Origin: a virus
Lineage: Duplodnaviria; Heunggongvirae; Uroviricota; Caudoviricetes
Direction: 5' to 3' (one strand)
Length of the DNA: 13,814 nt
Virus record (IMG/VR): IMGVR_UViG_2740892423_000026
Coordinates: 1-13,814 of that record
Below are positions 1,104 through 13,814 of the stretch, piece after piece. The notes under the pieces were generated by a model, which saw only the letters and a program-made list of their open reading frames with translations, did no database searches and was not told the origin of the DNA. The position numbers were made by a program, and so were the translations under genes. How positions within the stretch are numbered: position 1 is the stretch's first letter; every line of letters begins with the position of its first letter.

Positions 1104-4100
1104 ATGGGTAAAGGCAGCAGTAAGGGGCATACCCCGCGCGAAGCGAAGGACAACCTGAAGTCCACGCAGCTGCTGAGTGTGATCGATGCCATCAGCGAAG
1201 GGCCGGTTGAAGGTCCGGTGGATGGATTAAAAAGCGTGCTGCTGAACAGTACGCCGGTGCTGGACAGTGAGGGGAATACCAATATATCCGGCGTCACGGT
1301 GGTGTTCCGGGCCGGTGAGCAGGAGCAGACACCGCCGGAGGGATTTGAATCCTCCGGCTCCGAGACGGTGCTCGGTACAGAAGTGAAATATGACACGCCG
1401 ATCACCCGGACCATCACGTCGGCAAACATTGACCGTCTGCGTTTTACTTTCGGCGTGCAGGCACTGGTGGAAACCACCTCAAAGGGGGACAGGAATCCAT
1501 CGGAAGTCCGCCTGCTGGTTCAGATACAACGTAACGGTGGCTGGGTGACGGAAAAAGACATCACCATTAAGGGCAAAACCACCTCGCAGTATCTGGCCTC
1601 GGTGGTGGTGGATAACCTGCCGCCGCGCCCGTTTAATATACGGATGCGCAGGATGACGCCGGACAGCACCACAGACCAGCTGCAGAACAAAACGCTCTGG
1701 TCGTCATACACCGAAATCATCGATGTGAAACAGTGCTACCGGAACACGGCACTGGTCGGCGTGCAGGTGGATTCGGAGCAGTTCGGCAGCCAGCAGGTGA
1801 GCCGTAATTATCATCTGCGCGGGCGCATTCTGCAGGTGCCGTCGAACTATAACCCGCAGACGCGGCAATACAGCGGTATCTGGGACGGAACGTTTAAGCC
1901 AGCATACAGCAACAACATGGCCTGGTGTCTGTGGGATATGCTGACCCATCCGCGCTACGGCATGGGGAAACGTCTTGGTGCGGCGGATGTGGACAAATGG
2001 GCGCTGTATGTCATCGGCCAGCATTGCGATCAGTCGGTGCCGGACGGTTTTGGCGGCACGGAGCCGCGCATCACCTGTAATGCGTACCTGACCACACAGC
2101 GCAAGGCGTGGGATGTGCTCAGTGATTTCTGCTCTGCGATGCGCTGTATGCCGGTATGGAACGGGCAGACGCTGACGTTCGTGCAGGACCGACCGTCGGA
2201 TAAGGTGTGGACCTATAACCGCAGTAATGTGGTGATGCCGGATGATGGTGCGCCGTTCCGCTACAGCTTCAGCGCCCTGAAGGACCGCCATAATGCCGTT
2301 GAGGTGAACTGGATTGACCCGAATAACGGCTGGGAGACGGCGACAGAGCTTGTGGAGGACACGCAGGCCATTGCCCGTTACGGTCGTAACGTCACGAAGA
2401 TGGATGCTTTTGGCTGTACCAGCCGGGGGCAGGCACACCGCGCCGGGCTGTGGCTGATTAAAACAGAACTGCTGGAAACGCAGACCGTGGACTTCAGCGT
2501 GGGCGCAGAAGGGCTTCGCCATGTGCCGGGTGATGTCATTGAAATCTGTGATGATGACTATGCCGGTATCAGCATCGGCGGGCGCGTGCTGGCGGTAAAC
2601 AGCCAGACCCGGACGCTGACGCTCGACCGTGAAATCACGCTGCCATCCTCCGGTACCACGCTGATAAGCCTGGTTGACGGTCAGGGTAATCCGGTCAGCG
2701 TGGAGGTCCAGTCCGTCACCGACGGCGTGAAGGTGAAAGTGAGCCGGGTTCCTGATGGTGTTGCAGAATACAGCGTGTGGGGGCTGAAGCTGCCGACGTT
2801 GCGCCAGCGCCTGTTCCGCTGTGTGAGTATCCGTGAGAACGATGACGGCACGTATGCCATCACCGCCGTGCAGCATGTACCGGAAAAAGAGGCCATCGTG
2901 GATAACGGGGCGCACTTTGACGGCGACCAGAGCGGCACGGTGAATGGTGTCACGCCGCCAGCGGTGCAGCACCTGACTGCCGAAGTCACCGCAGACAGCG
3001 GGGANNNNNNNNNNTCGCGCATCACCTGTAACGCTTACCTGACCACACAGCGTAAGGCGTGGGATGTGCTCAGTGATTTCTGCTCGGCGATGCGCTGTAT
3101 GCCGGTATGGAACGGGCAGACGCTGACGTTCGTGCAGGACCGACCATCAGATAAGGTGTGGACCTATAACCGCAGTAATGTGGTGATGCCGGATGATGGC
3201 GCGCCGTTCCGCTACAGCTTCAGCGCCCTGAAGGACCGCCATAATGCCGTTGAGGTGAACTGGATTGACCCGGATAACGGCTGGGAGACGGCGACAGAGC
3301 TTGTGGAGGATACGCAGGCCATTGCCCGTTACGGTCGTAATGTCACGAAGATGGATGCTTTTGGCTGTACCAGCCGGGGGCAGGCACACCGCGCCGGGCT
3401 GTGGCTGATTAAAACAGAACTGCTGGAAACGCAGANNNNNNNNNNGTATCAGGTACTGGCCCGCTGGGACACGCCGAAGGTGGTGAAGGGGGTGAGCTTT
3501 ATGCTTCGCCTGACCGTGGCAGCGGACGACGGCAGTGAGCGGCTGGTCAGCACGGCCCGGACGACGGAAACCACATACCGCTTCAGGCAACTGGCGCTGG
3601 GAAATTACAGGCTGACAGTCCGGGCGGTAAATGCATGGGGACAGCAGGGCGATCCGGCATCGGTATTGTTCCGGATCGCCGCACCGGCAGCGCCGTCGCG
3701 GATTGAGCTGACGCCGGGCTATTTTCAGATAACCGCCACGCCGCATCTTGCGGTTTATGATCCGACGGTACAGTTTGAGTTCTGGTTCTCGGAAAAGCGG
3801 ATTGCGGATATCAGGCAGGTTGAAACCACAGCCCGCTATCTTGGTACGGCGCTGTACTGGATAGCCGCCAGTATCAATATCAAACCGGGCCATGATTATT
3901 ACTTTTATATCCGCAGTGTGAACACCGTAGGCAAATCGGCATTTGTGGAGGCCGTCGGTCGGGCGAGCGATGATGCATCCGGCTATCTGGATTTTTTCAA
4001 AGGCGAGATAGGGAAAACCCATCTGGCTCAGGAGCTGTGGACGCAGATTGATAACGGTCAGCTTGCGCCTGACCTGGCTGAAATCAGGACGTCCATTACG

Positions 4101-5775: not shown

Positions 5776-8700
5776 ATGGCAGTAAAGATTTCAGGTGTAC
5801 TGAAAGACGGCGCAGGTAAACCGGTACAGAACTGCACAATCCAGCTGAAAGCAAAACGTAACAGCACCACGGTGGTGGCGAACACGGTGGCCTCAGAAAA
5901 TCCGGATGAAGCCGGGCGTTACAGCATGGACGTTGAGTACGGTCAGTACAGCGTTATTCTGTTGGTGGAAGGCTTCCCGCCATCGCATGCCGGGACCATC
6001 ACCGTGTATGAAGACTCACAACCGGGTACGCTGAATGATTTTCTCGGTGCCATGACGGAGGATGATGTCCGTCCGGAGGCACTGCGCCGCTTTGAACTGA
6101 TGGTGGAAGAGGTGGCGTGTAACGCGTCCGCAGTGGCGCAGAACACAGCAGCCGCGAAGAAGTCAGCCAGCGATGCCAGCACATCAGCCCGTGAGGCGGC
6201 AACCCATGCGACTGATGCTGCAGGCTCAGCACGTGCAGCCAGCACGTCAGCCGGACAGGCCGCTTCGTCGGCTCAGTCAGCGTCTTCCAGCGCAGGAACG
6301 GCATCAGCAAAGGCCACTGAAGCATCAAAAAGTGCTGCCGCTGCAGAGTCTTCAAAAAGCGCGGCAGCCACCAGTGCCGGTGCAGCGAAAACGTCAGAAA
6401 CGAATGCCGCAGCATCACAAAAATCTGCGGCCACTTCTGCATCCACCGCGACCACGAAAGCGTCAGAAGCTGCCACCTCAGCCCGGGATGCGTCGGCTTC
6501 AAAAGTGGCGGCAAAATCATCAGAAACGAGCGCAGCCTCGAGCGCCGGCAGTGCAGCTTCCTCGGCAACGGCGGCAGGAAATTCCGCGAAGGCCGCAAAA
6601 ACGTCTGAGACGAATGCGGATAACAGCGCACAGGCGGCAGCAGNNNNNNNNNNTTCCGCGACAGCAGCCAAAAAATCAGAAACCAACGCGAAAAATAGTG
6701 AGTCAGCAGCAAAGGTCAGCGAAACCAACGCTAAAGCGTCAGAGAACAAGGCGAAAGAATATCTCGACAAGGTCGGGGGACTCGTCAGCCCGATGACGCA
6801 ATACGATTGGCCTGTTGTTACTGCTAGTGAGTCTCTTTACATCAAGATCGCGAAACTTTCCGATCCTGGAACCAGCAGAAGTCATGTAACGCTAATGGTT
6901 ACTAACGCTGGTAACTACGGCTCCCCTTACGGAAACATTGACTTTATCGAGATCTCGGCGCGCGGTCTGCCTTCTTTGCTTAGTGCGGATAATGTTTCTC
7001 GTCATCTGAGTATACGCCGCTTAGGGTCAACCGGGCTGACCGATAACAACCAGATGCGTTACGGCCTGGTTAAAGGTGACGGCTTTATTGAGGTTTGGGC
7101 ATTCCAGGGTGCGTTTATTAACGACGCAAAGGTTGCGGTGCTGGCGCAGACAACACTAAACACAGAATTATACATTCCAGACGGATTTGTTAAGCAAACC
7201 GCCGCGCCTTCTGGATATATTGAAGGCAACGTTGTAAGGATTTACGACCAGGTAAACAAGCCGACTAAAGCAGATTTGGGTCTTTCTAATGCTATGCTTA
7301 CAGGCGCTTTCGGTCTTGGCGGTAGCGGGATATCAACAAACGGCAAGATGAGCGATGTAGAGATCTTAAAAGCTCTGCGTGACAAAGGTGGTCATTTCTG
7401 GCGCGGTGATAAGCCGACCGGAAGCACGGCGACCATTTATAGCCACGGTTCTGGTATATTCTCGCGGTGCGGCGATACGTGGTCAGCGATCAATATCGAC
7501 TACTCAACCGCGAAGATTAAGATCTATGCCGGCAACGATGCCCGGCTTAACAACGGGACTTTTAGCGTCAATGAGCTATACGGCTCGGCAAACAAGCCGT
7601 CGAAATCGGATGTTGGACTTGGCAACGTAACGAACGATGCGCAGGTAAAAAAAACCGGCGATACAATGACCGGTGACTTGACAATCAAAAAAGGTACACC
7701 GTCAGTCTTCCTGCGGGCAGACAGTGGAGTCACCGCTTTGCGGTTTTATACTGGCGATAACACAGAGCGCGGCATAATCTATGCTGGTCCTAACACTGAT
7801 TCGCTTGGCGAAGTTCGCATCAGGGCAAAGACAGCAGGGGGGACATCAGGAGGGGATCTTGTTGTTCGTCACGACGGGAGGGTTGAAGTCCGTGATCTCA
7901 CAGTAGCGTATAAAATTAAAAGCAGAACGATTGAGATTGCAAATACCGACACTGACTCATCGGCAACTACGCTAAGCATCTATGGAGTACAGCACACGCC
8001 GTTGGTTTTAACGCGTTCTGGTTCTTCTGAAAATGTGTCCATTGGGTTTAAGTTAGACAACATGAACCCAAAGTATCTTGGAATTGATACTAATGGGGAT
8101 CTGGCTTTTGGTGAGAGTCCTGATCAGAAACAAAACAGCAAATTGATCACGCAAGCGAAACTCGACAAGGGATTAACGATTGGTGGTCAACTGGCTTTCA
8201 AAGGTACGACAGCGTTTTCAGCCGTTGCTACGTTCAGTGCCGGGATAGCAGGAGCCATCGAGCCGGAAAACATTGACGGCCAGACGGTTAATCTTAACAA
8301 CCTGACCATCATCAAGTCAGATGCCGGGGCAGTTAAATACTATATTTGTCCATCCTCTGCAGGTGGTGCAAATATCACCAACAAGCCTGACGGCGTAACA
8401 GGTAACTTTTTGCTCCGTGTTGAATCGACTCGTAAGGTTAGGGATTCAGATTATGCGAACATGCAAACGCTGATTAACAGCGACACAAAACGTATATACG
8501 TTCGCTTTGTTGTTAATGGAAACTGGACAGCGTGGAGTCAGGTTGTTGTTTCCGGATGGAATCAGGATGTAACCGTCAGGTCGTTAACCTCGACGACTCC
8601 ATCAAAATTAGGTGGCGGGCGGATTGATGTGCTTGGAAGTACGTCAGATTATGGCAGCATGAATTGTACCGTTCGTGGTGTTGATAGCACTGGAACCAAT

Positions 8701-9543
8701 TCGGCGTGGTCGGTAGGCACATCAGAAAGCACAGGCAAAATGTTGTTCCTGAAAAACCACAGAAGCAGCGCTCAAGTGCTGTTAAATGGCGATGATGGAG
8801 CGGTTCAACTACTAAGTGGCACTGTTAACGGTGCTACAGCGCAGGCGCTAACCATCAACAAAGATGAGGTTAACTCAACTGCCGATTTAGTAATTAGAAA
8901 ACAAACAGGGACTGGCAATCGTTTTGCTTTACTTAATTCAGGTAATTCAGAACTACCAGTTAGTATCAGGGTGTGGGGTTCCAGTACTCGACAAAACGTT
9001 TTTGAGGTTGGCACGTCTGCTGCGTATCTGTTTTATGCGCAAAAAACAACAGACGGGCAAAACCTTACTGTAAACGGAAGTGTTAACTGCACCACACTGA
9101 ATCAGTCATCAGACCGCAGACTGAAAGAAAATATCGAGATTATCGATAACGCGACTGACGCAATCCGCAAAATTAATGGATACACGTACACGCTCAAGGA
9201 GAATGGGGCACATTGCGCCGGGGTTATAGCCCAGGAAGTTGAAGAGGCCATCCCGGAGGCCGTTGGTTCATTCATCCATTACGGTGAAGAGTTGCAAGGC
9301 CCGACCGTTGACGGCAACGAGCTACGCGAAGAAACGCGCTATCTTAATGTTGACTACGCCGCCGTGACGGGTTTACTTGTTCAGGTCGCCCGTGAAACAG
9401 ATGATCGCGTTACCGCGCTGGAAGAGGAAAACACAACGCTACGTCAAAATCTGGCAACAGCAGGCACCCGGATCACCACTCTGGAAAATCAGGTAAGCGA
9501 ACTGGTTGCACTTGTCCGGCAGTTAACAGGAAGCGAACATTGA
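5776..9543 (+). CDS. stf: Mosaic side tail fiber: lambda Stf-like N-terminal anchor, Ala/Ser-rich repeat shaft (contains a 10-N gap), divergent distal region, C-terminal self-cleaving intramolecular chaperone domain (peptidase S74-like)
   Basis: ATG at 5776 gives MAVKISGVLKDGAGKPVQNCTIQLKAKRNSTTVVANTV.., matching the lambda Stf N-terminus (the ORF track begins at a GTG two codons upstream). Shaft is long A/S/T/K repeats (AAKTSETNA.. units). Distal part carries fibre motifs NKPTKADLGLSNA, NKPSKSDVGLGNVTNDAQ and GDTMTGDLTIKKG. C-terminus has SSDRRLKENIEII...INGYTYTLKENG..GVIAQEVEEAIPEAV followed by a coiled-coil (TALEEENTTLRQNLATAGTRITTLENQVSELVALVRQL), the signature of the endosialidase / T5 L-shaped-fibre chaperone domain. 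Confidence 0.85.
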   Translation: MAVKISGVLKDGAGKPVQNCTIQLKAKRNSTTVVANTVASENPDEAGRYSMDVEYGQYSVILLVEGFPPSHAGTITVYEDSQPGTLNDFLGAMTEDDVRPEALRRFELMVEEVACNASAVAQNTAAAKKSASDASTSAREAATHATDAAGSARAASTSAGQAASSAQSASSSAGTASAKATEASKSAAAAESSKSAAATSAGAAKTSETNAAASQKSAATSASTATTKASEAATSARDASASKVAAKSSETSAASSAGSAASSATAAGNSAKAAKTSETNADNSAQAAAXXXXSATAAKKSETNAKNSESAAKVSETNAKASENKAKEYLDKVGGLVSPMTQYDWPVVTASESLYIKIAKLSDPGTSRSHVTLMVTNAGNYGSPYGNIDFIEISARGLPSLLSADNVSRHLSIRRLGSTGLTDNNQMRYGLVKGDGFIEVWAFQGAFINDAKVAVLAQTTLNTELYIPDGFVKQTAAPSGYIEGNVVRIYDQVNKPTKADLGLSNAMLTGAFGLGGSGISTNGKMSDVEILKALRDKGGHFWRGDKPTGSTATIYSHGSGIFSRCGDTWSAINIDYSTAKIKIYAGNDARLNNGTFSVNELYGSANKPSKSDVGLGNVTNDAQVKKTGDTMTGDLTIKKGTPSVFLRADSGVTALRFYTGDNTERGIIYAGPNTDSLGEVRIRAKTAGGTSGGDLVVRHDGRVEVRDLTVAYKIKSRTIEIANTDTDSSATTLSIYGVQHTPLVLTRSGSSENVSIGFKLDNMNPKYLGIDTNGDLAFGESPDQKQNSKLITQAKLDKGLTIGGQLAFKGTTAFSAVATFSAGIAGAIEPENIDGQTVNLNNLTIIKSDAGAVKYYICPSSAGGANITNKPDGVTGNFLLRVESTRKVRDSDYANMQTLINSDTKRIYVRFVVNGNWTAWSQVVVSGWNQDVTVRSLTSTTPSKLGGGRIDVLGSTSDYGSMNCTVRGVDSTGTNSAWSVGTSESTGKMLFLKNHRSSAQVLLNGDDGAVQLLSGTVNGATAQALTINKDEVNSTADLVIRKQTGTGNRFALLNSGNSELPVSIRVWGSSTRQNVFEVGTSAAYLFYAQKTTDGQNLTVNGSVNCTTLNQSSDRRLKENIEIIDNATDAIRKINGYTYTLKENGAHCAGVIAQEVEEAIPEAVGSFIHYGEELQGPTVDGNELREETRYLNVDYAAVTGLLVQVARETDDRVTALEEENTTLRQNLATAGTRITTLENQVSELVALVRQLTGSEH
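6644..6653. other. Assembly gap (10 N) inside the Ala/Ser-rich repeat region of the tail fiber gene
   Basis: Run of exactly 10 N in low-complexity repeat DNA; true length of the repeat shaft is unknown. Confidence 0.9.
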
Positions 9544-9591
9544 TATCCTTCAAGCCCTGAAGGAGGCTGTTCCTGGTACGTTCAGACTGTT

Positions 9592-9726
9592 GTTGAGCTG
9601 GAAATCGCAACGGAGGAAGAAACCTTGTTGCTGGAAGCCTGGAAAAAGTATCGGGTGTTGCTGAACCGTGTTGATACATCAACTGCACCGGATATTGAGT
9701 GGCCAGAAGAACCAGACACCGTGTAA
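9592..9726 (+). pseudogene. tfa: 3' remnant of tail fiber assembly gene tfa (no start codon; about 44 C-terminal codons)
   Basis: Translation [44 protein letters not shown] closely matches the lambda Tfa C-terminus (..[37 protein letters not shown]..) as recalled. It lies in frame directly after the fiber TGA stop, with no ATG/GTG or RBS of its own. Confidence 0.6.
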
Positions 9727-9728
9727 GC

Positions 9729-9780
9729 AAAAAAGAAAAACCGCAGACACGACGTATGCATGACGTGCTGCGGTTTATGC
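9729..9780. terminator. Bidirectional terminator-like hairpin (repeat copy A) between the tfa remnant and the convergent GIY-YIG gene
   Basis: AAAAAGAAAAA, then CCGCAGACACGACGT..ACGTGCTGCGG imperfect inverted repeat, then TTTATGC. A-tract upstream and T-rich tract downstream let it act on both strands. Confidence 0.55.
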
Positions 9781-9795
9781 TTATCACTTAAAGAC

Positions 9796-10665
<870 letters not shown>

Positions 10666-10753
10666 CTAATTCTTTGAATTTACATAGTAAAAAAAGATAC
10701 TTTTCCTCATAGTGTGAGCTAATTTTATGTTTCGTTTGATGATCGGACCGGTC

Positions 10754-10794
10754 TCAAAAACCGCAGGCACGTTGTATGCAAGAACGTGCTGTGG
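10754..10794 (-). terminator. Terminator-like hairpin (repeat copy B), related to copy A at 9729..9780
   Basis: TCAAAAA then CCGCAGGCACGTT-GTATGCAAG-AACGTGCTGTGG. On the - strand the hairpin is followed by TTTTTGAG. About 33 of 39 positions are shared with copy A by eye. Confidence 0.45.
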
Positions 10795-10957
10795 CTGGCT
10801 GGTGAACTTCCAATAGTGCGAATATTGAATGATGTCCAGCCGTTACCGTTTTTACGTGTTTATTAGTGAACAAACCACTCGTCAGCAGACTCCTAGGTAT
10901 GAACAAAAGTTTTAGCTGAAACTCTATCTGTGGTGCGCGTAACAGAAGTGTAATAAA

Positions 10958-10976
10958 AGGCCCTAGAAAAGGGCCT
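10958..10976 (-). terminator. Short hairpin downstream of the 47-aa ORF (weak terminator candidate)
   Basis: AGGCCC-TAGAAAA-GGGCCT stem-loop; on the - strand it is followed by TTTATTAC. Confidence 0.35.
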
Positions 10977-10990
10977 AAGATTAGCAAAGA

Positions 10991-11134
10991 TTATCCTCGA
11001 TACTTAGAGGCAGGAATTTTGATAGGAAAGGCTGCCAAGCCTTTTTGACGAGCAAAGATCCGTTTACCTTTGACCGTAATAAAAGGACGGTAAATTGTGA
11101 TGTATTCCTCAGATACAGCTTTTTCAATGGTCAT
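10991..11134 (-). CDS. Hypothetical small protein (47 aa), below the ORF-track length cutoff
   Basis: ATG at 11134 (- strand) to TAA at 10991: MTIEKAVSEEYITIYRPFITVKGKRIFARQKGLAAFPIKIPASKYRG. Weak AGGT Shine-Dalgarno; hairpin immediately downstream. Basic and non-hydrophobic; no motif I recognise. Confidence 0.3.
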   Translation of the reverse strand: MTIEKAVSEEYITIYRPFITVKGKRIFARQKGLAAFPIKIPASKYRG

Positions 11135-11160
11135 ATCGTGTTACCTGTAAAGTTTCGCTG

Positions 11161-11188
11161 TTGACAAAACCTAAGGTAAGCGTATACT
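11161..11188 (+). promoter_or_regulatory. Near-consensus sigma70 promoter (TTGACA-16 nt-TATACT) firing toward the ImmA 3' end
   Basis: TTGACA at 11161..11166, 16-nt spacer, TATACT at 11183..11188. No + strand ORF follows; a terminator lies about 45 nt downstream. Confidence 0.5.
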
Positions 11189-11194
11189 CACAAC

Positions 11195-11258
11195 CGCCAA
11201 GTTTTTCGTATTTGCTTACGATAGGAGAAGCCAGCGACAGCGGTTCGCTGGCTTTTTC
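11195..11258 (+). ncRNA. Candidate small RNA (about 60-65 nt) defined by a consensus promoter and an intrinsic terminator
   Basis: Predicted +1 about 7 nt after the -10. Transcript ends at GCCAGCG-ACAGCGGTT-CGCTGGC hairpin (11230..11252) followed by TTTTT. No start codon inside. Lies opposite the ImmA 3' end / intergenic region of the - strand operon. Confidence 0.35.
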
Positions 11259-11259
11259 G

Positions 11260-11793
11260 TTATCTTTTTGCATTTTTTCTCATCCAGGTTTCAGCCGCTT
11301 GTTGACTGACACCAAATGTTTTGCTTATATCTTCAACAGTCATTGTGGGCAAAACTAGTCTTGAGTCAATTAAGAAGTGGCTTGCAAAAACATCTGCTTG
11401 CCATTCGCTGTCTTCATAGATTTTATGCCCTCCACTAGTCTTATTACGTGCATAGATACTTTGATTGCGATGCATGACTAAATGACCAAGTTCATGCGCA
11501 ACAGTGAATCTCGCATGGTTCTCACCATTGCACACTGCATCGTAAACAGATCGCTGTAAAACAATTTTGTTCTTATCTGGATAAGTCACTGCATAGCGTT
11601 TGGGCAGTTCATGATCTTCAACAATTTCTAGCTCAATGCTTTCTGAGGCCATAAGACCTTCTAGTAATACATCCAGTCTCAGATATGTGTGATTTGATAT
11701 CTGAAGAACGTCTCTCAGACGATGAGCGTATGATTTAATCATGCTGGTGCTGAGAGGTGAAACGCGATGGCCAAGTTCTCGTTTCGCAATCAT
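11260..11793 (-). CDS. ImmA/IrrE-family Zn-metallopeptidase (COG2856-like)
   Basis: HEXXH motif in ..RFTVAHELGHLVMHRNQ... AAGGA Shine-Dalgarno 7 nt before the ATG; start lies 3 nt after the stop of the upstream XRE gene (TGA-ATA-ATG), typical of the coupled XRE/ImmA pair. Confidence 0.8.
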   Translation of the reverse strand: MIAKRELGHRVSPLSTSMIKSYAHRLRDVLQISNHTYLRLDVLLEGLMASESIELEIVEDHELPKRYAVTYPDKNKIVLQRSVYDAVCNGENHARFTVAHELGHLVMHRNQSIYARNKTSGGHKIYEDSEWQADVFASHFLIDSRLVLPTMTVEDISKTFGVSQQAAETWMRKNAKR

Positions 11794-11796
11794 TAT

Positions 11797-12147
11797 TCAG
11801 TCCTTTAACATTTTATTAAGCTTATCGAGTTGCTCTGGACTCAGGTCCTTAAATTTACGAGCAAAAACAAGCATTAGTTCTTTGTTCTGCTCATTTGCAT
11901 CCGACATATCAACCTTAATGGACGGTTGAGAAATCTCTGCCTGTTTCTTGAGATTGATGATGTCTTGTCCGCTAAGCTCAAAAGTTGTTGCAATCGTATT
12001 TACTAATGAGTCCGGTATAGCTCTTTTGCCTAATTCAATGGCGGATAAGTAAGCCGAACTAACGCCTAACAGATCAGCCATATTTTTGAGCACCATACCC
12101 CGGTCTATTCTCATTTTTCTGAGAGTCTTACCAAAGCTAGTTACCAT
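11797..12147 (-). CDS. XRE-family helix-turn-helix transcriptional regulator (ImmR/repressor-like)
   Basis: HTH_3-type helix-turn-helix ..MVLKNMADLLGVSSAYLSAIELGKRAIPDSLVNTIATTFELS... Start placed at ATG 12147 because it is preceded by AGGAGG with a 6-nt spacer (the ORF track starts 9 codons earlier without an RBS). Confidence 0.8.
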   Translation of the reverse strand: MVTSFGKTLRKMRIDRGMVLKNMADLLGVSSAYLSAIELGKRAIPDSLVNTIATTFELSGQDIINLKKQAEISQPSIKVDMSDANEQNKELMLVFARKFKDLSPEQLDKLNKMLKD

Positions 12148-12176
12148 GTTGCGCCTCCTACAATCCATGCTCACTT

Positions 12177-12205
12177 ATACTAAAAACCAAACTCAAGATC
12201 AACAA
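12177..12205 (-). promoter_or_regulatory. Candidate promoter for the XRE-ImmA operon (TTGTTG-17 nt-TAGTAT on the - strand)
   Basis: Reverse complement of 12200..12205 is TTGTTG, 17-nt spacer, reverse complement of 12177..12182 is TAGTAT, about 30 nt upstream of the XRE start. TGTAG-type repeats at 12209..12215, 12244..12249 and 12293..12298 lie just upstream as candidate operator half-sites. Confidence 0.3.
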
Positions 12206-12429
12206 AAATTGTAGAATTTTTTAATCTCAGCGTGTGATGACAATCTACATAAAATCATGAAATGGTGCAAGGCGTAACTTAAAAAATACCACATGTAGTG
12301 TCAATTTTATGTGCTGTATGGATATATGGGGTTGGTAAACTTTTGCTCTTTTGTGCTCCTCAGCTATGTGGTTGTTTGATTTTTGAACATCTTGTGGAAC
12401 ATAAATTGGGTTTATGCTTTTCCCTTTCG

Positions 12430-12457
12430 GTGACAACATGTTTATAGGATGTATAAT
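12430..12457 (+). promoter_or_regulatory. Candidate sigma70 promoter for the Bro-N gene (GTGACA-16 nt-TATAAT)
   Basis: GTGACA at 12430..12435, 16-nt spacer, TATAAT at 12452..12457, followed by AGGAGG (12468..12473) and the GTG start 7 nt later. Confidence 0.45.
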
Positions 12458-12480
12458 CCATAAAAAAAGGAGGGGATGGC

Positions 12481-13242
12481 GTGCAAAAGAATTTGTTACA
12501 ATTATGCTACGAAGAAGAGTGTGGAGAAAATTATATCCGTAGCATGAATGAAAAAGGGCAGATTTTTGTTTCACTTTCAGATGTGCTAAGAACGCTTTCT
12601 GCTGAGAACAGAAAACTGGATGGAAAGACTTCTCAAAGCTTGCTCACTGTAATAAGAGCGGTAATAAAAACTTTAGATCCAGATGAGTTTAGGAATGTTT
12701 CTCTTGTCGTGGATGGTGAAACTATCTCTGAGGTATTTCTTACTGAACCAGGTCTATATAGAGTACTTGCTCAGGATACTACTGCTGCGGGGAAAAAATT
12801 CCAACGCTGGCTTTTTCATCAGGTCCTTCCGTCTATTCGTGAATTTGGTGTATATCCTCCGCCACCTAAACAAGAACGTTCAGAACTGAGTGCTTTTGCT
12901 AACAGTCTGCAGCAGACGGTTCAAGCATTGGTAATGGAAATAGAAAAACGTGAAGAGTTAGAAAGTAGAGTAAACCAAGTTGAACTAAAAGTTAACTCGT
13001 TAGAAAGTTTAAGAGACTTGTCTCAGTTCAGAAGTGTTCCTCAACGATTGATGGAGTTAGGTTTGGATACCTATTCAGTTGAGGAACTTTGGCAATGGTG
13101 TGAAAAATTGCGTAGTGAACGTGGAGCAGAAAGAATTAAGTGCCCCTCCGGATTGAATATAAATTCTTGCTATCCATTAGCTTTGGTTGATGAAGCTATC
13201 GCTATATACCAGAAAGTAGTTGAGGCAAGAACACGTCAGTGA
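12481..13242 (+). CDS. Bro-N domain protein (antirepressor-like; N-terminal Bro-N DNA-binding domain, central coiled-coil, C-terminal domain of unknown function)
   Basis: GTG start with a strong AGGAGG RBS. Bro-N signature ..FVSLSDVLRTL...LTEPGLYRVLAQDTTAAGKKFQRWLFHQVLPSIREFGVY.. matches the conserved F-x-x-W-L/V-x-x-x-V-L-P-S-I-R-x-x-G-x-Y core of Bro-N / Ant N-terminal domains. Divergent from the XRE-ImmA operon. Confidence 0.75.
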   Translation: MQKNLLQLCYEEECGENYIRSMNEKGQIFVSLSDVLRTLSAENRKLDGKTSQSLLTVIRAVIKTLDPDEFRNVSLVVDGETISEVFLTEPGLYRVLAQDTTAAGKKFQRWLFHQVLPSIREFGVYPPPPKQERSELSAFANSLQQTVQALVMEIEKREELESRVNQVELKVNSLESLRDLSQFRSVPQRLMELGLDTYSVEELWQWCEKLRSERGAERIKCPSGLNINSCYPLALVDEAIAIYQKVVEARTRQ

Positions 13243-13261
13243 GCTTGAGGGAAAAAAACAA

Positions 13262-13289
13262 AAAAGCCCGCATAAGCGGGCTTTTTTGT
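13262..13289. terminator. Strong bidirectional rho-independent terminator (after the Bro-N gene; also faces ssrA)
   Basis: AAAAAAACAAAAAA, then GCCCGC-ATAA-GCGGGC, then TTTTTT. The A-run on one side and T-run on the other give hairpin+U-tract on both strands. Confidence 0.75.
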
Positions 13290-13412
13290 CACTCGGGAGC
13301 CGCGGCTCCTTTGCGTATCCTTTTTTGTCTCCTCACCGTCTGGTCGGTGTCCTGCTGAGACTGCTAACTTCCTGTTTTTATTGGTGTTGTCCTTACACCG
13401 TCCAATCATGAT

Positions 13413-13775
13413 TGGTGGAGCTGGCGGGAGTTGAACCCGCGTCCGAAATTCCTACATCCTCGGTACTACATGCTTAGTCAGTCTTTACATTCGCTTGCCA
13501 GCTGCGGACGGACACGCCACTAACAAACTAGCCTGATTAAGTTTTAACGCTTCAACCCCAGGCAGGGCTTCCACGCGATCTCTTTTGGGTTTGACCTCTC
13601 TTGATCCCCGTCCTAAGAGCGGAGGCTAGGGAGAGAGGGCTCTAAGCAGGTTATTAAGCTGCTAAAGCGTAGTTTTCGTCGTTTGCGACTATTTTTTGCG
13701 GCTTTTTACGAGGCCAACCGCCCCTCGGCATGCACCTTGGGTTTCGCAAATCCCGTCGAATCCAGAATCAGCCCC
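13413..13775 (-). ncRNA. ssrA: tmRNA (SsrA), complete 363-nt gene
   Basis: Reverse complement begins GGGGCTGATTCTGGATTCGACGGG.. and ends ..GGTTCAACTCCCGCCAGCTCCACCA. It contains the tag reading frame GCAAACGACGAAAACTACGCTTTAGCAGCTTAA (ANDENYALAA*) at 13654..13686. Matches the E. coli ssrA sequence as I recall it. Confidence 0.95.
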
Positions 13776-13814
13776 AATGTGTAAAGGTAAGTATACCAGA
13801 TTTATGAGCGCCAT

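Follow-up and report, generated by a model that had tools for sequence, protein, structure and literature searches.

In Sfi21-like phages and other siphophages of Gram-positive bacteria, lysogeny modules combine a metalloprotease, a CI-like repressor with Cro, and a Bro-N/KilAC antirepressor. In the ImmR/ImmA pair, as summarised in published work, the repressor is cleaved by the protease, and CapH/CapP regulators have been described for CBASS and for further defence operons (Lau et al.; bioRxiv 10.1101/2022.04.27.489752, 10.64898/2026.05.16.725639). About 33% of CapP proteins have a cysteine-switch loop, which is located between HExxH and the third zinc ligand (bioRxiv 10.1101/2022.04.27.489752). 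The XRE-ImmA pair studied here is of this well-known repressor-plus-protease kind. It lies in a 13,814-nt stretch of DNA (hereafter the window) that forms the accessory, ssrA-proximal end of an E. coli lambdoid prophage; there it faces a Bro-N family gene (Table 1). The initial annotation had read this arrangement as a repressor/antirepressor switch. Comparison across phages points instead to separate modules: the XRE-ImmA cassette and the Bro-N gene are independent units that happen to be adjacent in a single sub-lineage of lambdoid prophages integrating at ssrA.

Table 1. Features of the XRE-ImmA and Bro-N modules, in window coordinates.
Feature	Position	Strand	Basis
Intrinsic terminator closing the XRE-ImmA-sm2 operon	10958..10976	-	terminator scan
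sm2, 47-aa basic ORF, last gene of the XRE-ImmA operon	10991..11134	-	alignment
Candidate cis-antisense sRNA unit	11161..11272	+	promoter, terminator, conservation, folding
ImmA/IrrE-type M78 zinc metallopeptidase gene, 177 aa	11260..11793	-	Pfam Peptidase_M78 2.8e-11
XRE-family HTH repressor gene, 116 aa	11797..12147	-	Pfam, PADLOC, RefSeq start
Proximal XRE promoter candidate: -35 TTGATC 12202-12197, 17-nt spacer, -10 TATAAG 12179-12174	12174..12202	-	
O1, candidate XRE operator, imperfect palindrome TTCTACA-N5-TGTTGAT (XRE strand)	12198..12216	.	conservation
Distal XRE-direction promoter candidate: -35 TTGCAC 12270-12265, -10 TAGATT 12247-12242	12242..12270	-	
Upstream conserved block, XRE strand ACACTACATGTGGTATTTTTT, contains TGTAG site 3	12283..12303	.	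cassette alignment
P_bro: GTGACA 12430-12435, N16, TATAAT 12452-12457	12430..12457	+	11/12 match
Bro-N family gene, 253 aa, GTG start	12481..13242	+	Pfam Bro-N
GC-rich hairpin between A-runs and T-runs	13257..13290	.	- strand version in terminator scan

How firmly is the pair placed in its class? It is a genuine HTH repressor/M78 peptidase operon of the ImmR/ImmA, CapH/CapP and DdrO/IrrE class. Domain matches confirmed every gene of the set originally proposed (XRE, ImmA and a divergent Bro-N), and the suggested likeness to ImmR/ImmA is backed, at the level of class membership, by Pfam, by the capP and capH profiles and by PDB entry 7t5t. The XRE protein matches HTH_19 (3.7e-9), HTH_31 and HTH_3 in Pfam, all above their cut-offs, as well as the PADLOC models HTH_VI (1.9e-12) and capH (1.2e-10; residues 3-115 on model positions 5-96 of 103), and its PDB matches include an immunity repressor, DdrO and the N-terminal domain of CapH. 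Its C-terminal helical domain holds a hydrophobic-Arg motif, LVF95-A-R97. RefSeq and seven aligned cassettes agree on the ATG at 12147, behind a GGAGG and in a start context invariant across the seven; a longer XRE start at GTG 12174, disfavoured by both sources, is unlikely. Because translation starts at this ATG, the divergent intergenic region comprises 12148-12480, its 333 bp agreeing with the ~330 bp estimated before. The reported coupling of the two genes also holds: the XRE stop (11797-11799) and the ImmA ATG (11791-11793) are separated by 3 nt.

The peptidase carries HELGH at residues 100-104, and an E..AD.FA motif is also visible in its sequence. It is a single-domain protein without a GAF domain. 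The PADLOC capP match (5e-15) covers model positions 31-146 of 242 only, and the sole PDB match, CapP 7t5t (291 aa), aligns over residues 84-144, the peptidase core only; by both profile and alignment, the central HTH and C-terminal GAF domains of CapP are missing. Nor does the ImmA segment LVMHRNQSIYARNKTSGGHKIYEDSE contain a Cys that could act as cysteine-switch residue. As ImmA is devoid of the CapP groove domains, ssDNA sensing of the kind known from CapP and IrrE should not be assumed for it.

The initial annotation had further singled out three TGTAG-type sites as operators. All three are present (TGTAG at 12210-12214 and 12294-12298, CTACA at 12245-12249), and a fourth lies at 12158-12162 in the same intergenic region, such that 12158-12298 holds four of the 12 TGTAG/CTACA occurrences of the whole 13.8-kb window (simulating the intergenic region with a first-order Markov model gives P(at least 4) = 0.0012). 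Six of seven related cassettes keep the sites at -15 and -67/-68 relative to the XRE ATG, and the conserved TGTAG blocks lie no more than 170 bp from that ATG in 6/7 close cassettes. We take the TGTAG-containing elements to be genuine regulatory DNA that is conserved. The best candidate for an XRE operator is O1, which reads TTCTACAatttTTGTTGAT on the XRE strand and pairs TGTAG site 1 with TGTTGA. Compared with TTCWACA-N5-TGTWGAA, it has one mismatch in the window and none in phage LLS, and locus L043 carries TTCAACA at the palindrome position, yielding a perfect TTCAACA/TGTTGAA, instead of the TGTAG-containing block. O1 sits inside AATTCTACAnnTTTTGTTGA, a block better conserved than any other non-coding stretch of the seven cassettes. 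It overlaps the -35 box of the proximal promoter, and distant cassettes have palindromes of their own at the same place, over the -35 box of the XRE promoter. It appears better supported than the inverted pair CTACAT..ATGTAG put forward earlier, which is literally present, but whose arms are 42 bp apart and whose right arm reads ATGTTG or ATATAG in relatives. No second O1-like site was found elsewhere in the window.

The hexamers and spacing of the proximal promoter candidate are kept in all seven cassettes, including L043, which is devoid of the distal region; a simple scanner missed this promoter because its -10 box, TATAAG, lacks the T at position 6. The distal promoter shows its hexamers at a fixed 17-nt spacing around a non-conserved spacer in six of the seven, and TGTAG site 2 is best read as its -10 box. 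The upstream block aligns as ACAACATATAGTGTTTTT in LLS, L039, L040 and L041 and as CTAGATGTAGTG in L042; it marks the left edge of the cassette, just past which similarity between cassettes stops, and may constitute an auxiliary operator or an UP-like element. Promoters had been predicted in both directions, and P_bro plus the two XRE-direction candidates from the cassette alignment agree with this. So does the search for a LexA box with the reported absence of one: CTGT-N8-ACAG with up to one mismatch does not occur in 9400-13814, and direct LexA control of the locus is, judged from sequence, absent.

On the opposite side of the intergenic region, the Bro-N protein exceeds the Pfam gathering score (2.4e-7; 31.7 bits versus a cut-off of 25.6) and consists of the Bro-N domain (~1-122), a long helix (135-175) and a small C-terminal domain (183-252), in which an alignment reveals a conserved W.WCEK motif. 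We found 58 homologues. Past residue 117 there is no Pfam match, hence no KilA-C, ANT or P22_AR_C domain, and the AlphaFold2 model (pLDDT 83) returned no PDB fold match with E < 0.001. Behind P_bro come an A-rich leader and the ribosome-binding site GGAGGGG. The arrangement (c)ATGACA-N17-TATAAT plus leader is kept in 17/17 Bro-N loci, with or without XRE/ImmA; across the same 17, the spacer is variable and no operator is shared. Judged from sequence, there is no sign of a dedicated repressor, of LexA or of antisense control of Bro-N (no LexA box, no conserved operator at P_bro, and the same promoter in loci that have no regulator alongside). Downstream of the gene, the hairpin at 13257-13290, GCCCGCATAAGCGGGC then TTTTTTGT on the + strand, can be read as a terminator both for Bro-N (+) and for ssrA read-through (-).

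Are the two modules linked? Our Bro-N search found 27 IMG/VR loci, to which phage LLS was added for comparison. Among these, the divergent XRE/ImmA pair occurs in three lineages only (Bro-N identity at least 78%). XRE/ImmA is missing within 4 kb in 13 of 17 Bro-N loci, one locus has a distant XRE/ImmA pair oriented the same way as Bro-N, and distant Bro-N orthologues (Yersinia, Methylovulum and others) are also without the pair. The cassette, in turn, is found without Bro-N in at least four other contexts (L040-L043; 76-85% XRE identity) with different neighbours, and the TGTAG blocks are equally conserved where the left neighbour is not Bro-N (L040, L041, L042). Being XRE-proximal and conserved without Bro-N, these blocks belong to the XRE cassette.

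We therefore regard it as unlikely that XRE represses both itself and the divergent Bro-N gene, with ImmA cleavage freeing Bro-N as an antirepressor or as some other effector, e.g. a defence protein. The repression proposed initially is argued against by a P_bro that persists, with no shared operator, in the 13 loci lacking XRE/ImmA, and by conserved motifs that are all XRE-proximal. P_bro lies at least 130 bp beyond the last conserved XRE-side block, and the DNA in between (12300-12425) is unconserved among the three linked lineages. Within 12300-12480, no O1-like site has three or fewer mismatches. A degenerate O1-like element at 12381-12401 (TTCCACA/TGTTCAA, 3-nt spacer, 4 mismatches), 29 bp upstream of the P_bro -35 box, and a TCAACA half-site at a similar place in LLS put such weak elements ~100 bp upstream of the Bro-N start; they speak for repression and count against two separate modules, but L039 has none. 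Other observations likewise favour a switch. The two genes diverge from one shared 333-bp region, in exactly the geometry of ImmR/Pxis and of CapH/CapP and their defence operons; capH and capP are the best matches of the pair, and CapH/CapP-like pairs are always found upstream of the operon under their control and in the opposite orientation (bioRxiv 10.1101/2022.04.27.489752). Such regulator pairs are promiscuous, and varied neighbours alone therefore leave room for control of the facing promoter. Of 5426 complete E. coli genomes, 34 carry the cassette, as does the cultured phage LLS, and in 34/34 of these genomes Bro-N is linked to it. The Bro-N protein falls in PHROG 'anti-repressor Ant' families, although the C-terminal KilA-C or ANT domain is lacking and PADLOC gives no match.

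An antirepressor role for Bro-N in its own prophage is unlikely also from the genomic setting. The prophage has its own CI/Cro region ~36 kb from the window, together with a separate KilA-N or KilAC protein elsewhere, and phage LLS has separate CI/Cro and antirepressor genes as well. Because a separate CI/Cro region exists, XRE-ImmA is not the master switch of the prophage. Moreover, an antirepressor behind a near-consensus promoter that appears unguarded in most relatives would be hard to reconcile with stable lysogeny.

The cassette adjoins PD-T4-3 (PADLOC, 8.7e-140) in an accessory/defence hotspot. This location would suit a tool of inter-phage conflict, wherein ImmA acts in trans on the repressors of other elements, resident or incoming (cross-induction or anti-lysogeny), or XRE represses incoming relatives that bear O1-like operators. 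In Listeria, an ImmA-like protease of the monocin element reportedly controls the repressor of a co-resident prophage. The lack of a second O1-like site in the window argues against such trans activity, and we hold it to be highly improbable.

The conserved partners of the cassette lie downstream instead, namely sm2 and a putative antisense unit. The promoter of the latter (TTGACA 11161-11166, N16, TATACT 11183-11188; 11/12 match) would give rise to a transcript of roughly 75 nt (~11195-11272), ending at an intrinsic terminator hairpin (11224-11258) with a T-run. The unit overlaps the ImmA stop codon and a RefSeq 49-aa protein (11124-11273, -). Its DNA is near-invariant, with frame-breaking indels in LLS, L040 and L041, and its folding energy is low (-26.8 kcal/mol, z = -3.4); it belongs to no Rfam family. 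All 16 IMG/VR contigs bearing the hairpin carry the cassette, and in the distant cassette L045 the antisense terminator is kept with two compensatory stem changes. The RefSeq hypothetical protein WP_001519526.1 is probably non-coding, an annotation that we flag for correction. The sm2 protein, with the core PFITVKGKRIFA..GLAAFPI, varies in a synonymous-type manner in the alignment. It is found in the close cassettes except L043, which has, by eye, a divergent sm2-like ORF only, and at 51% identity in the distant cassettes L045 and L050. Just five database homologues exist, none of them named, and Pfam, PADLOC, PHROG and NCBIfam gave no match. LLS, L039, L040 and L041 have an equivalent hairpin 3' of sm2. 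Even cassettes at just 42-46% protein identity still hold sm2 and the antisense terminator, and another distant cassette encodes a TIR effector downstream, in the same orientation.

Could the whole be an autonomous, mobile, stress- or infection-triggered unit of XRE, ImmA, antisense RNA and sm2, with sm2 as its effector? This would represent an undescribed kind of compact, phage-borne defence or conflict module, in which sm2 would be gated twice, once through proteolysis of the repressor and once through the convergent cis-antisense sRNA. The peptidase, being GAF-less, would have to be triggered by something other than ssDNA in a CapP-like groove; we rate this reading as rather unlikely. Less probable still is a type II TA-like addiction or stress module that stabilises the prophage end, with Xre as antitoxin, the COG2856 protein as 'toxin' and no target but itself. 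The tight two-gene operon with the HTH gene first, the mobility of the cassette across many contexts and the candidate self-operator would all fit, and Xre-COG2856 pairs have been predicted to be TA-like mobile modules (PMC2701414). However, the characterised ImmA, IrrE and CapP are repressor-cleaving regulators rather than toxins, and a conserved antisense RNA and sm2, superfluous for a simple TA pair, argue for a larger unit.

On balance, we lean slightly towards a self-regulated ImmR/ImmA-like (CapH/CapP-like) cassette beside an independently expressed Bro-N moron. The first module (~10958-12303, -) would comprise two tandem promoters, XRE, ImmA, the antisense sRNA unit, sm2 and a terminator. 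We infer that XRE, as a dimer or tetramer, binds O1 over the proximal -35 box and keeps the operon low, the other TGTAG-containing blocks being possible further targets. Upon a stress signal (by family analogy either infection or damage to DNA; a LexA box is absent), ImmA would cut XRE in its C-terminal oligomerisation helix and thereby derepress the operon, whose conserved cargo would be sm2, small and basic. If made, the 75-nt antisense RNA, which runs convergently, could further limit read-through, or mRNA stability, into sm2. The second module (~12425-13290, +) would consist of the Bro-N gene plus a near-consensus promoter and a terminator of its own, an att-proximal moron that is probably expressed constitutively in the lysogen, independently of XRE. 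Besides the geometry, the weak element and the strict E. coli linkage discussed above, the missing T6 of the proximal -10 box weighs against this two-module reading, making it uncertain which of the two XRE-direction promoters is used; so does the lack of any detectable family for sm2, its supposed cargo.

If true, an XRE/Bro-N switch would have given a lambdoid coliphage a second induction circuit, one that does not depend on SOS; the comparative data make this unlikely. The locus cautions that genes diverging side by side in the accessory region of a prophage do not have to regulate one another, and that apparent operator repeats can be promoter hexamers. What it offers is a small, mobile and easily testable XRE-ImmA cassette, defined by a candidate operator, two promoters, an antisense sRNA unit and a small ORF. 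A GAF-less protease of the CapP/IrrE/ImmA class in E. coli could help clarify how short ImmA-type proteases sense their signals.

How does this cassette compare with described systems? The Sfi21-like modules, which the switch analogy reflects, share the three protein types in the same relative orientation, and most tblastn matches of the Bro-N protein in phages carry an antirepressor annotation and belong to Gram-positive phages. Unlike in those modules, there is no Cro-like gene between the operators and Bro-N, the locus is outside the immunity region, and the Bro-N promoter is independent, conserved and found without the repressor, too. As a stand-alone prophage protein that combines a KilA-N/Bro-N-type DNA-binding domain at its N-terminus with a second, C-terminal domain, Bro-N also resembles the prophage Abi protein BstA (bioRxiv 10.1101/2020.07.13.199331). 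By this analogy, one possible reading is that of a defence protein expressed by the lysogen, although no PADLOC sequence match exists and the domain is Bro-N rather than KilA-N. With CapH/CapP, the pair shares the order of HTH and peptidase genes, the orientation facing away from the neighbouring gene and the defence-rich accessory region, and LVF95-A-R97 of XRE may correspond to the F82/R83 cleavage context of CapH. In contrast to CapP, the 177-aa peptidase lacks the central HTH, the C-terminal GAF domain (the ssDNA-binding groove of CapP) and the cysteine switch, and the pair faces a single Bro-N gene, in unconserved linkage, rather than a known defence operon. In DdrO/IrrE (PprI) of Deinococcus, a COG2856 peptidase likewise cuts an XRE repressor within the C-terminal dimerisation domain, as might occur here; IrrE, however, has a GAF domain, and irrE and ddrO are non-adjacent and serve a chromosomal regulon, whereas our pair forms a mobile cassette carried by a phage. 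ImmR/ImmA of Bacillus subtilis ICEBs1 and c-phi105/ImmA of phi105 similarly consist of an XRE repressor followed by a ~170-aa single-domain M78 HExxH peptidase, a likeness by which a self-operator would be expected at the pair's own promoter and a divergent promoter on the other side. Unlike ImmR/ImmA, the present pair is not the master switch of its element, does not include int in its operon, and is not backed by comparative data as controlling the divergent gene; it resides in a lambdoid phage of a Gram-negative host, and a 47-aa ORF and an antisense sRNA unit form part of its operon.

Does the XRE repressor govern its divergent neighbor, Bro-N? The initial annotation had proposed a repressor/antirepressor switch, in which XRE silences Bro-N until it is cleaved by ImmA. 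Its gene calls proved sound: the M78 peptidase (HELGH), the XRE HTH and the Bro-N domain all score above Pfam thresholds, the XRE stop and ImmA start codons are 3 nt apart, the divergent intergenic region, estimated at ~330 bp, measures 333 bp when counted from the conserved XRE start codon, ATG 12147, and a near-consensus Bro-N promoter is present (12430-12457). Of the proposed switch, the evidence upholds the repressor paired with a protease as well as the regulatory motifs, but neither the link to Bro-N nor a role of the latter as antirepressor. Judging from comparative evidence, Bro-N is probably not a target of XRE, given that its promoter is kept without a common operator, that many Bro-N loci lack the pair, and that related cassettes (XRE, ImmA and downstream parts) occur without Bro-N. 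A search for Bro-N returned 27 IMG/VR loci; when the cultured phage LLS is added, a divergent XRE/ImmA pair adjoins Bro-N in only three lineages (the window type, the L010 type and LLS), and 13 Bro-N lineages or loci of this set have no such pair within 4 kb. One further locus (L012) has a distant XRE/ImmA pair in the same orientation as Bro-N. Found beside Bro-N where the pair is missing are, among others, UmuC-like, SRAP and tail-fibre genes, along with small unknown ones. The pair is likewise absent beside the Bro-N orthologues of Yersinia and more distant bacteria, and is present in Citrobacter, whose Bro-N is a 90% orthologue. Cassettes that are 76–85% identical but lack Bro-N adjoin an integrase, a lipoprotein-like gene or a secreted protein. 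Copies in E. coli genomes are all >99% identical, with the cassette always linked to Bro-N, and are therefore uninformative on module independence. Scanning one genome per species for ImmA relatives yielded only 4 distant loci, with unrelated neighbors.

All 17 loci examined retain the Bro-N promoter itself, (c)ATGACA-N17-(g)TATAAT, together with the A-rich leader and G-rich ribosome-binding site behind it; the promoter spacer varies and holds no operator common to the 17. Conservation is lacking over the 120 bp between the cassette edge (~12303) and this promoter, even when just the three linked lineages are compared. The main point in favor of the switch would be weak elements resembling O1, the candidate XRE operator (palindrome 12198-12216): scanning for the O1 pattern gave only 4-mismatch elements, located in the window and LLS ~100 bp ahead of the Bro-N start, and none upstream of Bro-N in L039. 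The O1 region recurs in degenerate, inverted form (TTCCACA-aga-TGTTCAA; 13/16 identical to the O1 flank) at 12381-12401, 29 bp ahead of the -35 box of Bro-N; LLS has a TCAACA half-site at a similar position, and L039 lacks one.

The TGTAG elements, read initially as operator repeats, are, on alignment evidence, better described as part of the promoter/operator region of the XRE cassette itself. The TGTAG/CTACA pentamers of all three half-sites lie where the initial annotation placed them, with a fourth copy at 12158, so that 4 of the 12 copies in the window fall within 140 bp (P ~0.001 by simulation). We gathered related cassettes from IMG/VR and aligned the 200 nt upstream of XRE for seven of them, whose XRE proteins are 76–100% identical and whose left neighbors differ. 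The most conserved non-coding block, AATTCTACAnnTTTTGTTGA (12218-12198), holds O1 as an imperfect palindrome, TTCTACA-N5-TGTTGAT. In LLS only the W positions depart from a perfect palindrome, and L043 has a true one. O1 overlaps a -35 box (TTGATC) separated by 17 nt from TATAAG. Farther upstream, a second pair of hexamers, TTGCAC and TAGATT, is conserved at a spacing of exactly 17 nt around a non-conserved spacer, a promoter signature; this TAGATT is the second half-site. The third lies in another conserved block at the cassette edge, where the pentamer itself varies (ATATAG or ATGTTG in relatives). In distant cassettes (30–46% identity), a palindrome of the cassette's own covers the XRE promoter's -35 box, and the common theme therefore appears to be autoregulation. 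As the initial annotation had noted, a LexA box is absent: the region holds no CTGT-N8-ACAG with up to 1 mismatch, ruling out LexA control. Neither an ORF at 12245-12574 (-) nor the small ORFs upstream of XRE in LLS, L040 and L041 matched any family, and they were rejected as genes; all they have in common is NIQHIVF, which comes from a conserved DNA block.

What, then, is Bro-N? Its family comprises 58 homologues (33–90% identical). In the protein, a helix of 40 residues follows the Bro-N domain, and the small C-terminal domain carries a conserved W.WCEK motif. A Foldseek search against the PDB gave nothing below E = 0.09, a sequence search of the PDB no meaningful match, and PADLOC no defence-family match. 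In tRNA-Pro-integrating relatives, the Bro-N -35 box (cATGACA) lies inside a ~50-nt tRNA-Pro 3′ fragment (the att core) directly upstream of the gene, and an integrase follows on its 3′ side; a remnant of the fragment persists in LLS (L002 ~21440-21455). The ssrA-integrating phages kept the promoter and not the tRNA fragment. Bro-N is thus conserved, att-proximal and equipped with a promoter that looks constitutive. A self-directed antirepressor role is unlikely. The variable slot beside Bro-N in relatives is often occupied by genes associated with the DNA damage response. In Methylovulum (L059/L060 4001-6339), a 39%-identical Bro-N homologue sits between glyQ and glyS with an AAA_15/AAA_21 ATPase and a 165-aa protein, an insertion that may be a small defence-like islet.

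The window is the right-hand end of a lambdoid prophage that has ssrA as its integration site, with the tail genes J, lom and stf upstream of the locus. The annotation of E. coli 1506D011 shows this arrangement too, and of 5426 complete E. coli genomes, 34 contain the block 11000-13420 at >99% identity. Phage LLS carries a 76%-identical version between its tail-fibre/invertase genes and attP, which is the ssrA 3′ end (PMC12315714); the LLS paper does not discuss genes 27-30 (PMC12315714). With the ssrA 3′ end coming from the phage, the terminator downstream of the tmRNA gene is phage DNA. LLS and the E. coli prophage each carry, far from the locus, a conventional CI/Cro region along with a Q antiterminator and a separate KilA-N or KilAC protein. 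The locus is therefore an accessory ('moron') region; because CI/Cro sit elsewhere, XRE/ImmA is ruled out as the prophage immunity repressor. G+C is ~0.55 in J and lom and 0.505 in stf, falling to 0.36–0.44 at the locus. The adjoining PD-T4-3 match marks the tail-fibre-to-att region as a hotspot of defence and accessory genes. The cassette is unlikely to regulate PD-T4-3, given the terminator and 390 bp in between and the lack of PD-T4-3 in LLS and L010. The window also contains three 10-N runs (3005-3014, 3436-3445 and 6644-6653); the block between the first two repeats ~140 aa of the J protein (1312 aa here versus 1159 aa in a RefSeq relative), which looks less like biology than like an artefact of assembly or masking.

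Of most interest among the side results is a conserved cassette architecture with an antisense sRNA unit and a small ORF. Downstream of ImmA, the region annotated in RefSeq as a 49-aa hypothetical protein (WP_001519526.1; 11124-11273, -) is nearly invariant DNA across cassettes whose proteins are only 76–88% identical, and 1-nt indels break its reading frame. On account of such indels in near-invariant DNA, this protein was rejected, and the region is probably non-coding. On the opposite strand, the promoter and terminator predict a ~75-nt RNA antisense to the junction of ImmA and the next gene, sm2. It matched no Rfam family and had no convincing complementarity to trans targets within the window. 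Its hairpin was found in 16 IMG/VR contigs, all 16 with the cassette. Even in L045 (XRE 42%, ImmA 46% identical), the terminator is kept, exactly at the ImmA stop codon, with two compensatory G:C to A:T changes in the stem (compared by eye; the MAFFT alignment shifts the arm by one position), and an sm2 homologue is also present. Retained with the cassette down to ~45% cassette identity, sm2 has only 5 database homologues, none of them named, and profile searches assigned it to no known family. In a distant cassette (39% identity; L046/L053, a Candidatus Accumulibacter contig), a CAP12/Pycsar-type TIR effector and then a membrane protein follow downstream in the same orientation. Cargo in this clade therefore seems to be carried co-oriented on the downstream side of the cassette rather than divergently on the upstream side. 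The divergent neighbor at a Vibrio locus (L052) resembles a DNA methyltransferase.

Coordinates of features at the locus and in comparison loci (window positions unless a locus is named)
Feature	Position	Strand	Remarks
GIY-YIG (LEM-3-like) gene, PD-T4-3 defence family	9796-10569	-	PADLOC 8.7e-140, full-length match; adjoins locus
sm2, 47-aa basic ORF	10991-11134	-	Synonymous-type variation; terminator follows
sRNA-like unit	11161-11272	+	Invariant promoter TTGACA-N16-TATACT, strong intrinsic terminator; nearly invariant DNA
GC-rich hairpin with flanking A-runs and T-runs	13257-13290	both	Could terminate Bro-N (+) and ssrA read-through (-)
Complete tmRNA gene	13413-13775	-	ARAGORN and Rfam
tRNA-Pro 3′ fragment holding Bro-N -35 box	L013 3906-3960		Also L014, L015, L020, L024, L027, L029
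DNA-damage-associated neighbors	L014 3043-3720 (-), L020 2551-3813 (+), L062 1669-2379		SRAP/YedK-like peptidase, UmuC-like polymerase, DinI, UmuD-like S24 peptidase
CAP12/Pycsar-type TIR effector and following ORFs	L046/L053 5121-5876	+	Downstream of distant cassette

Taken together, the locus is an ordinary new representative of a known regulator class. By sequence, the XRE-ImmA pair belongs with ImmR/ImmA, CapH/CapP and DdrO/IrrE. The ssDNA groove, the established mechanism of CapP and IrrE, is not simply transferable, because the peptidase here is of the short, single-domain ImmA type, without GAF domain, central HTH domain or cysteine switch. The capH profile aligns with the XRE protein over its full length, and a hydrophobic-Arg motif in the C-terminal helix of XRE, VF95-A-R97, may be the counterpart of the CapH F82|R83 site that it recalls.
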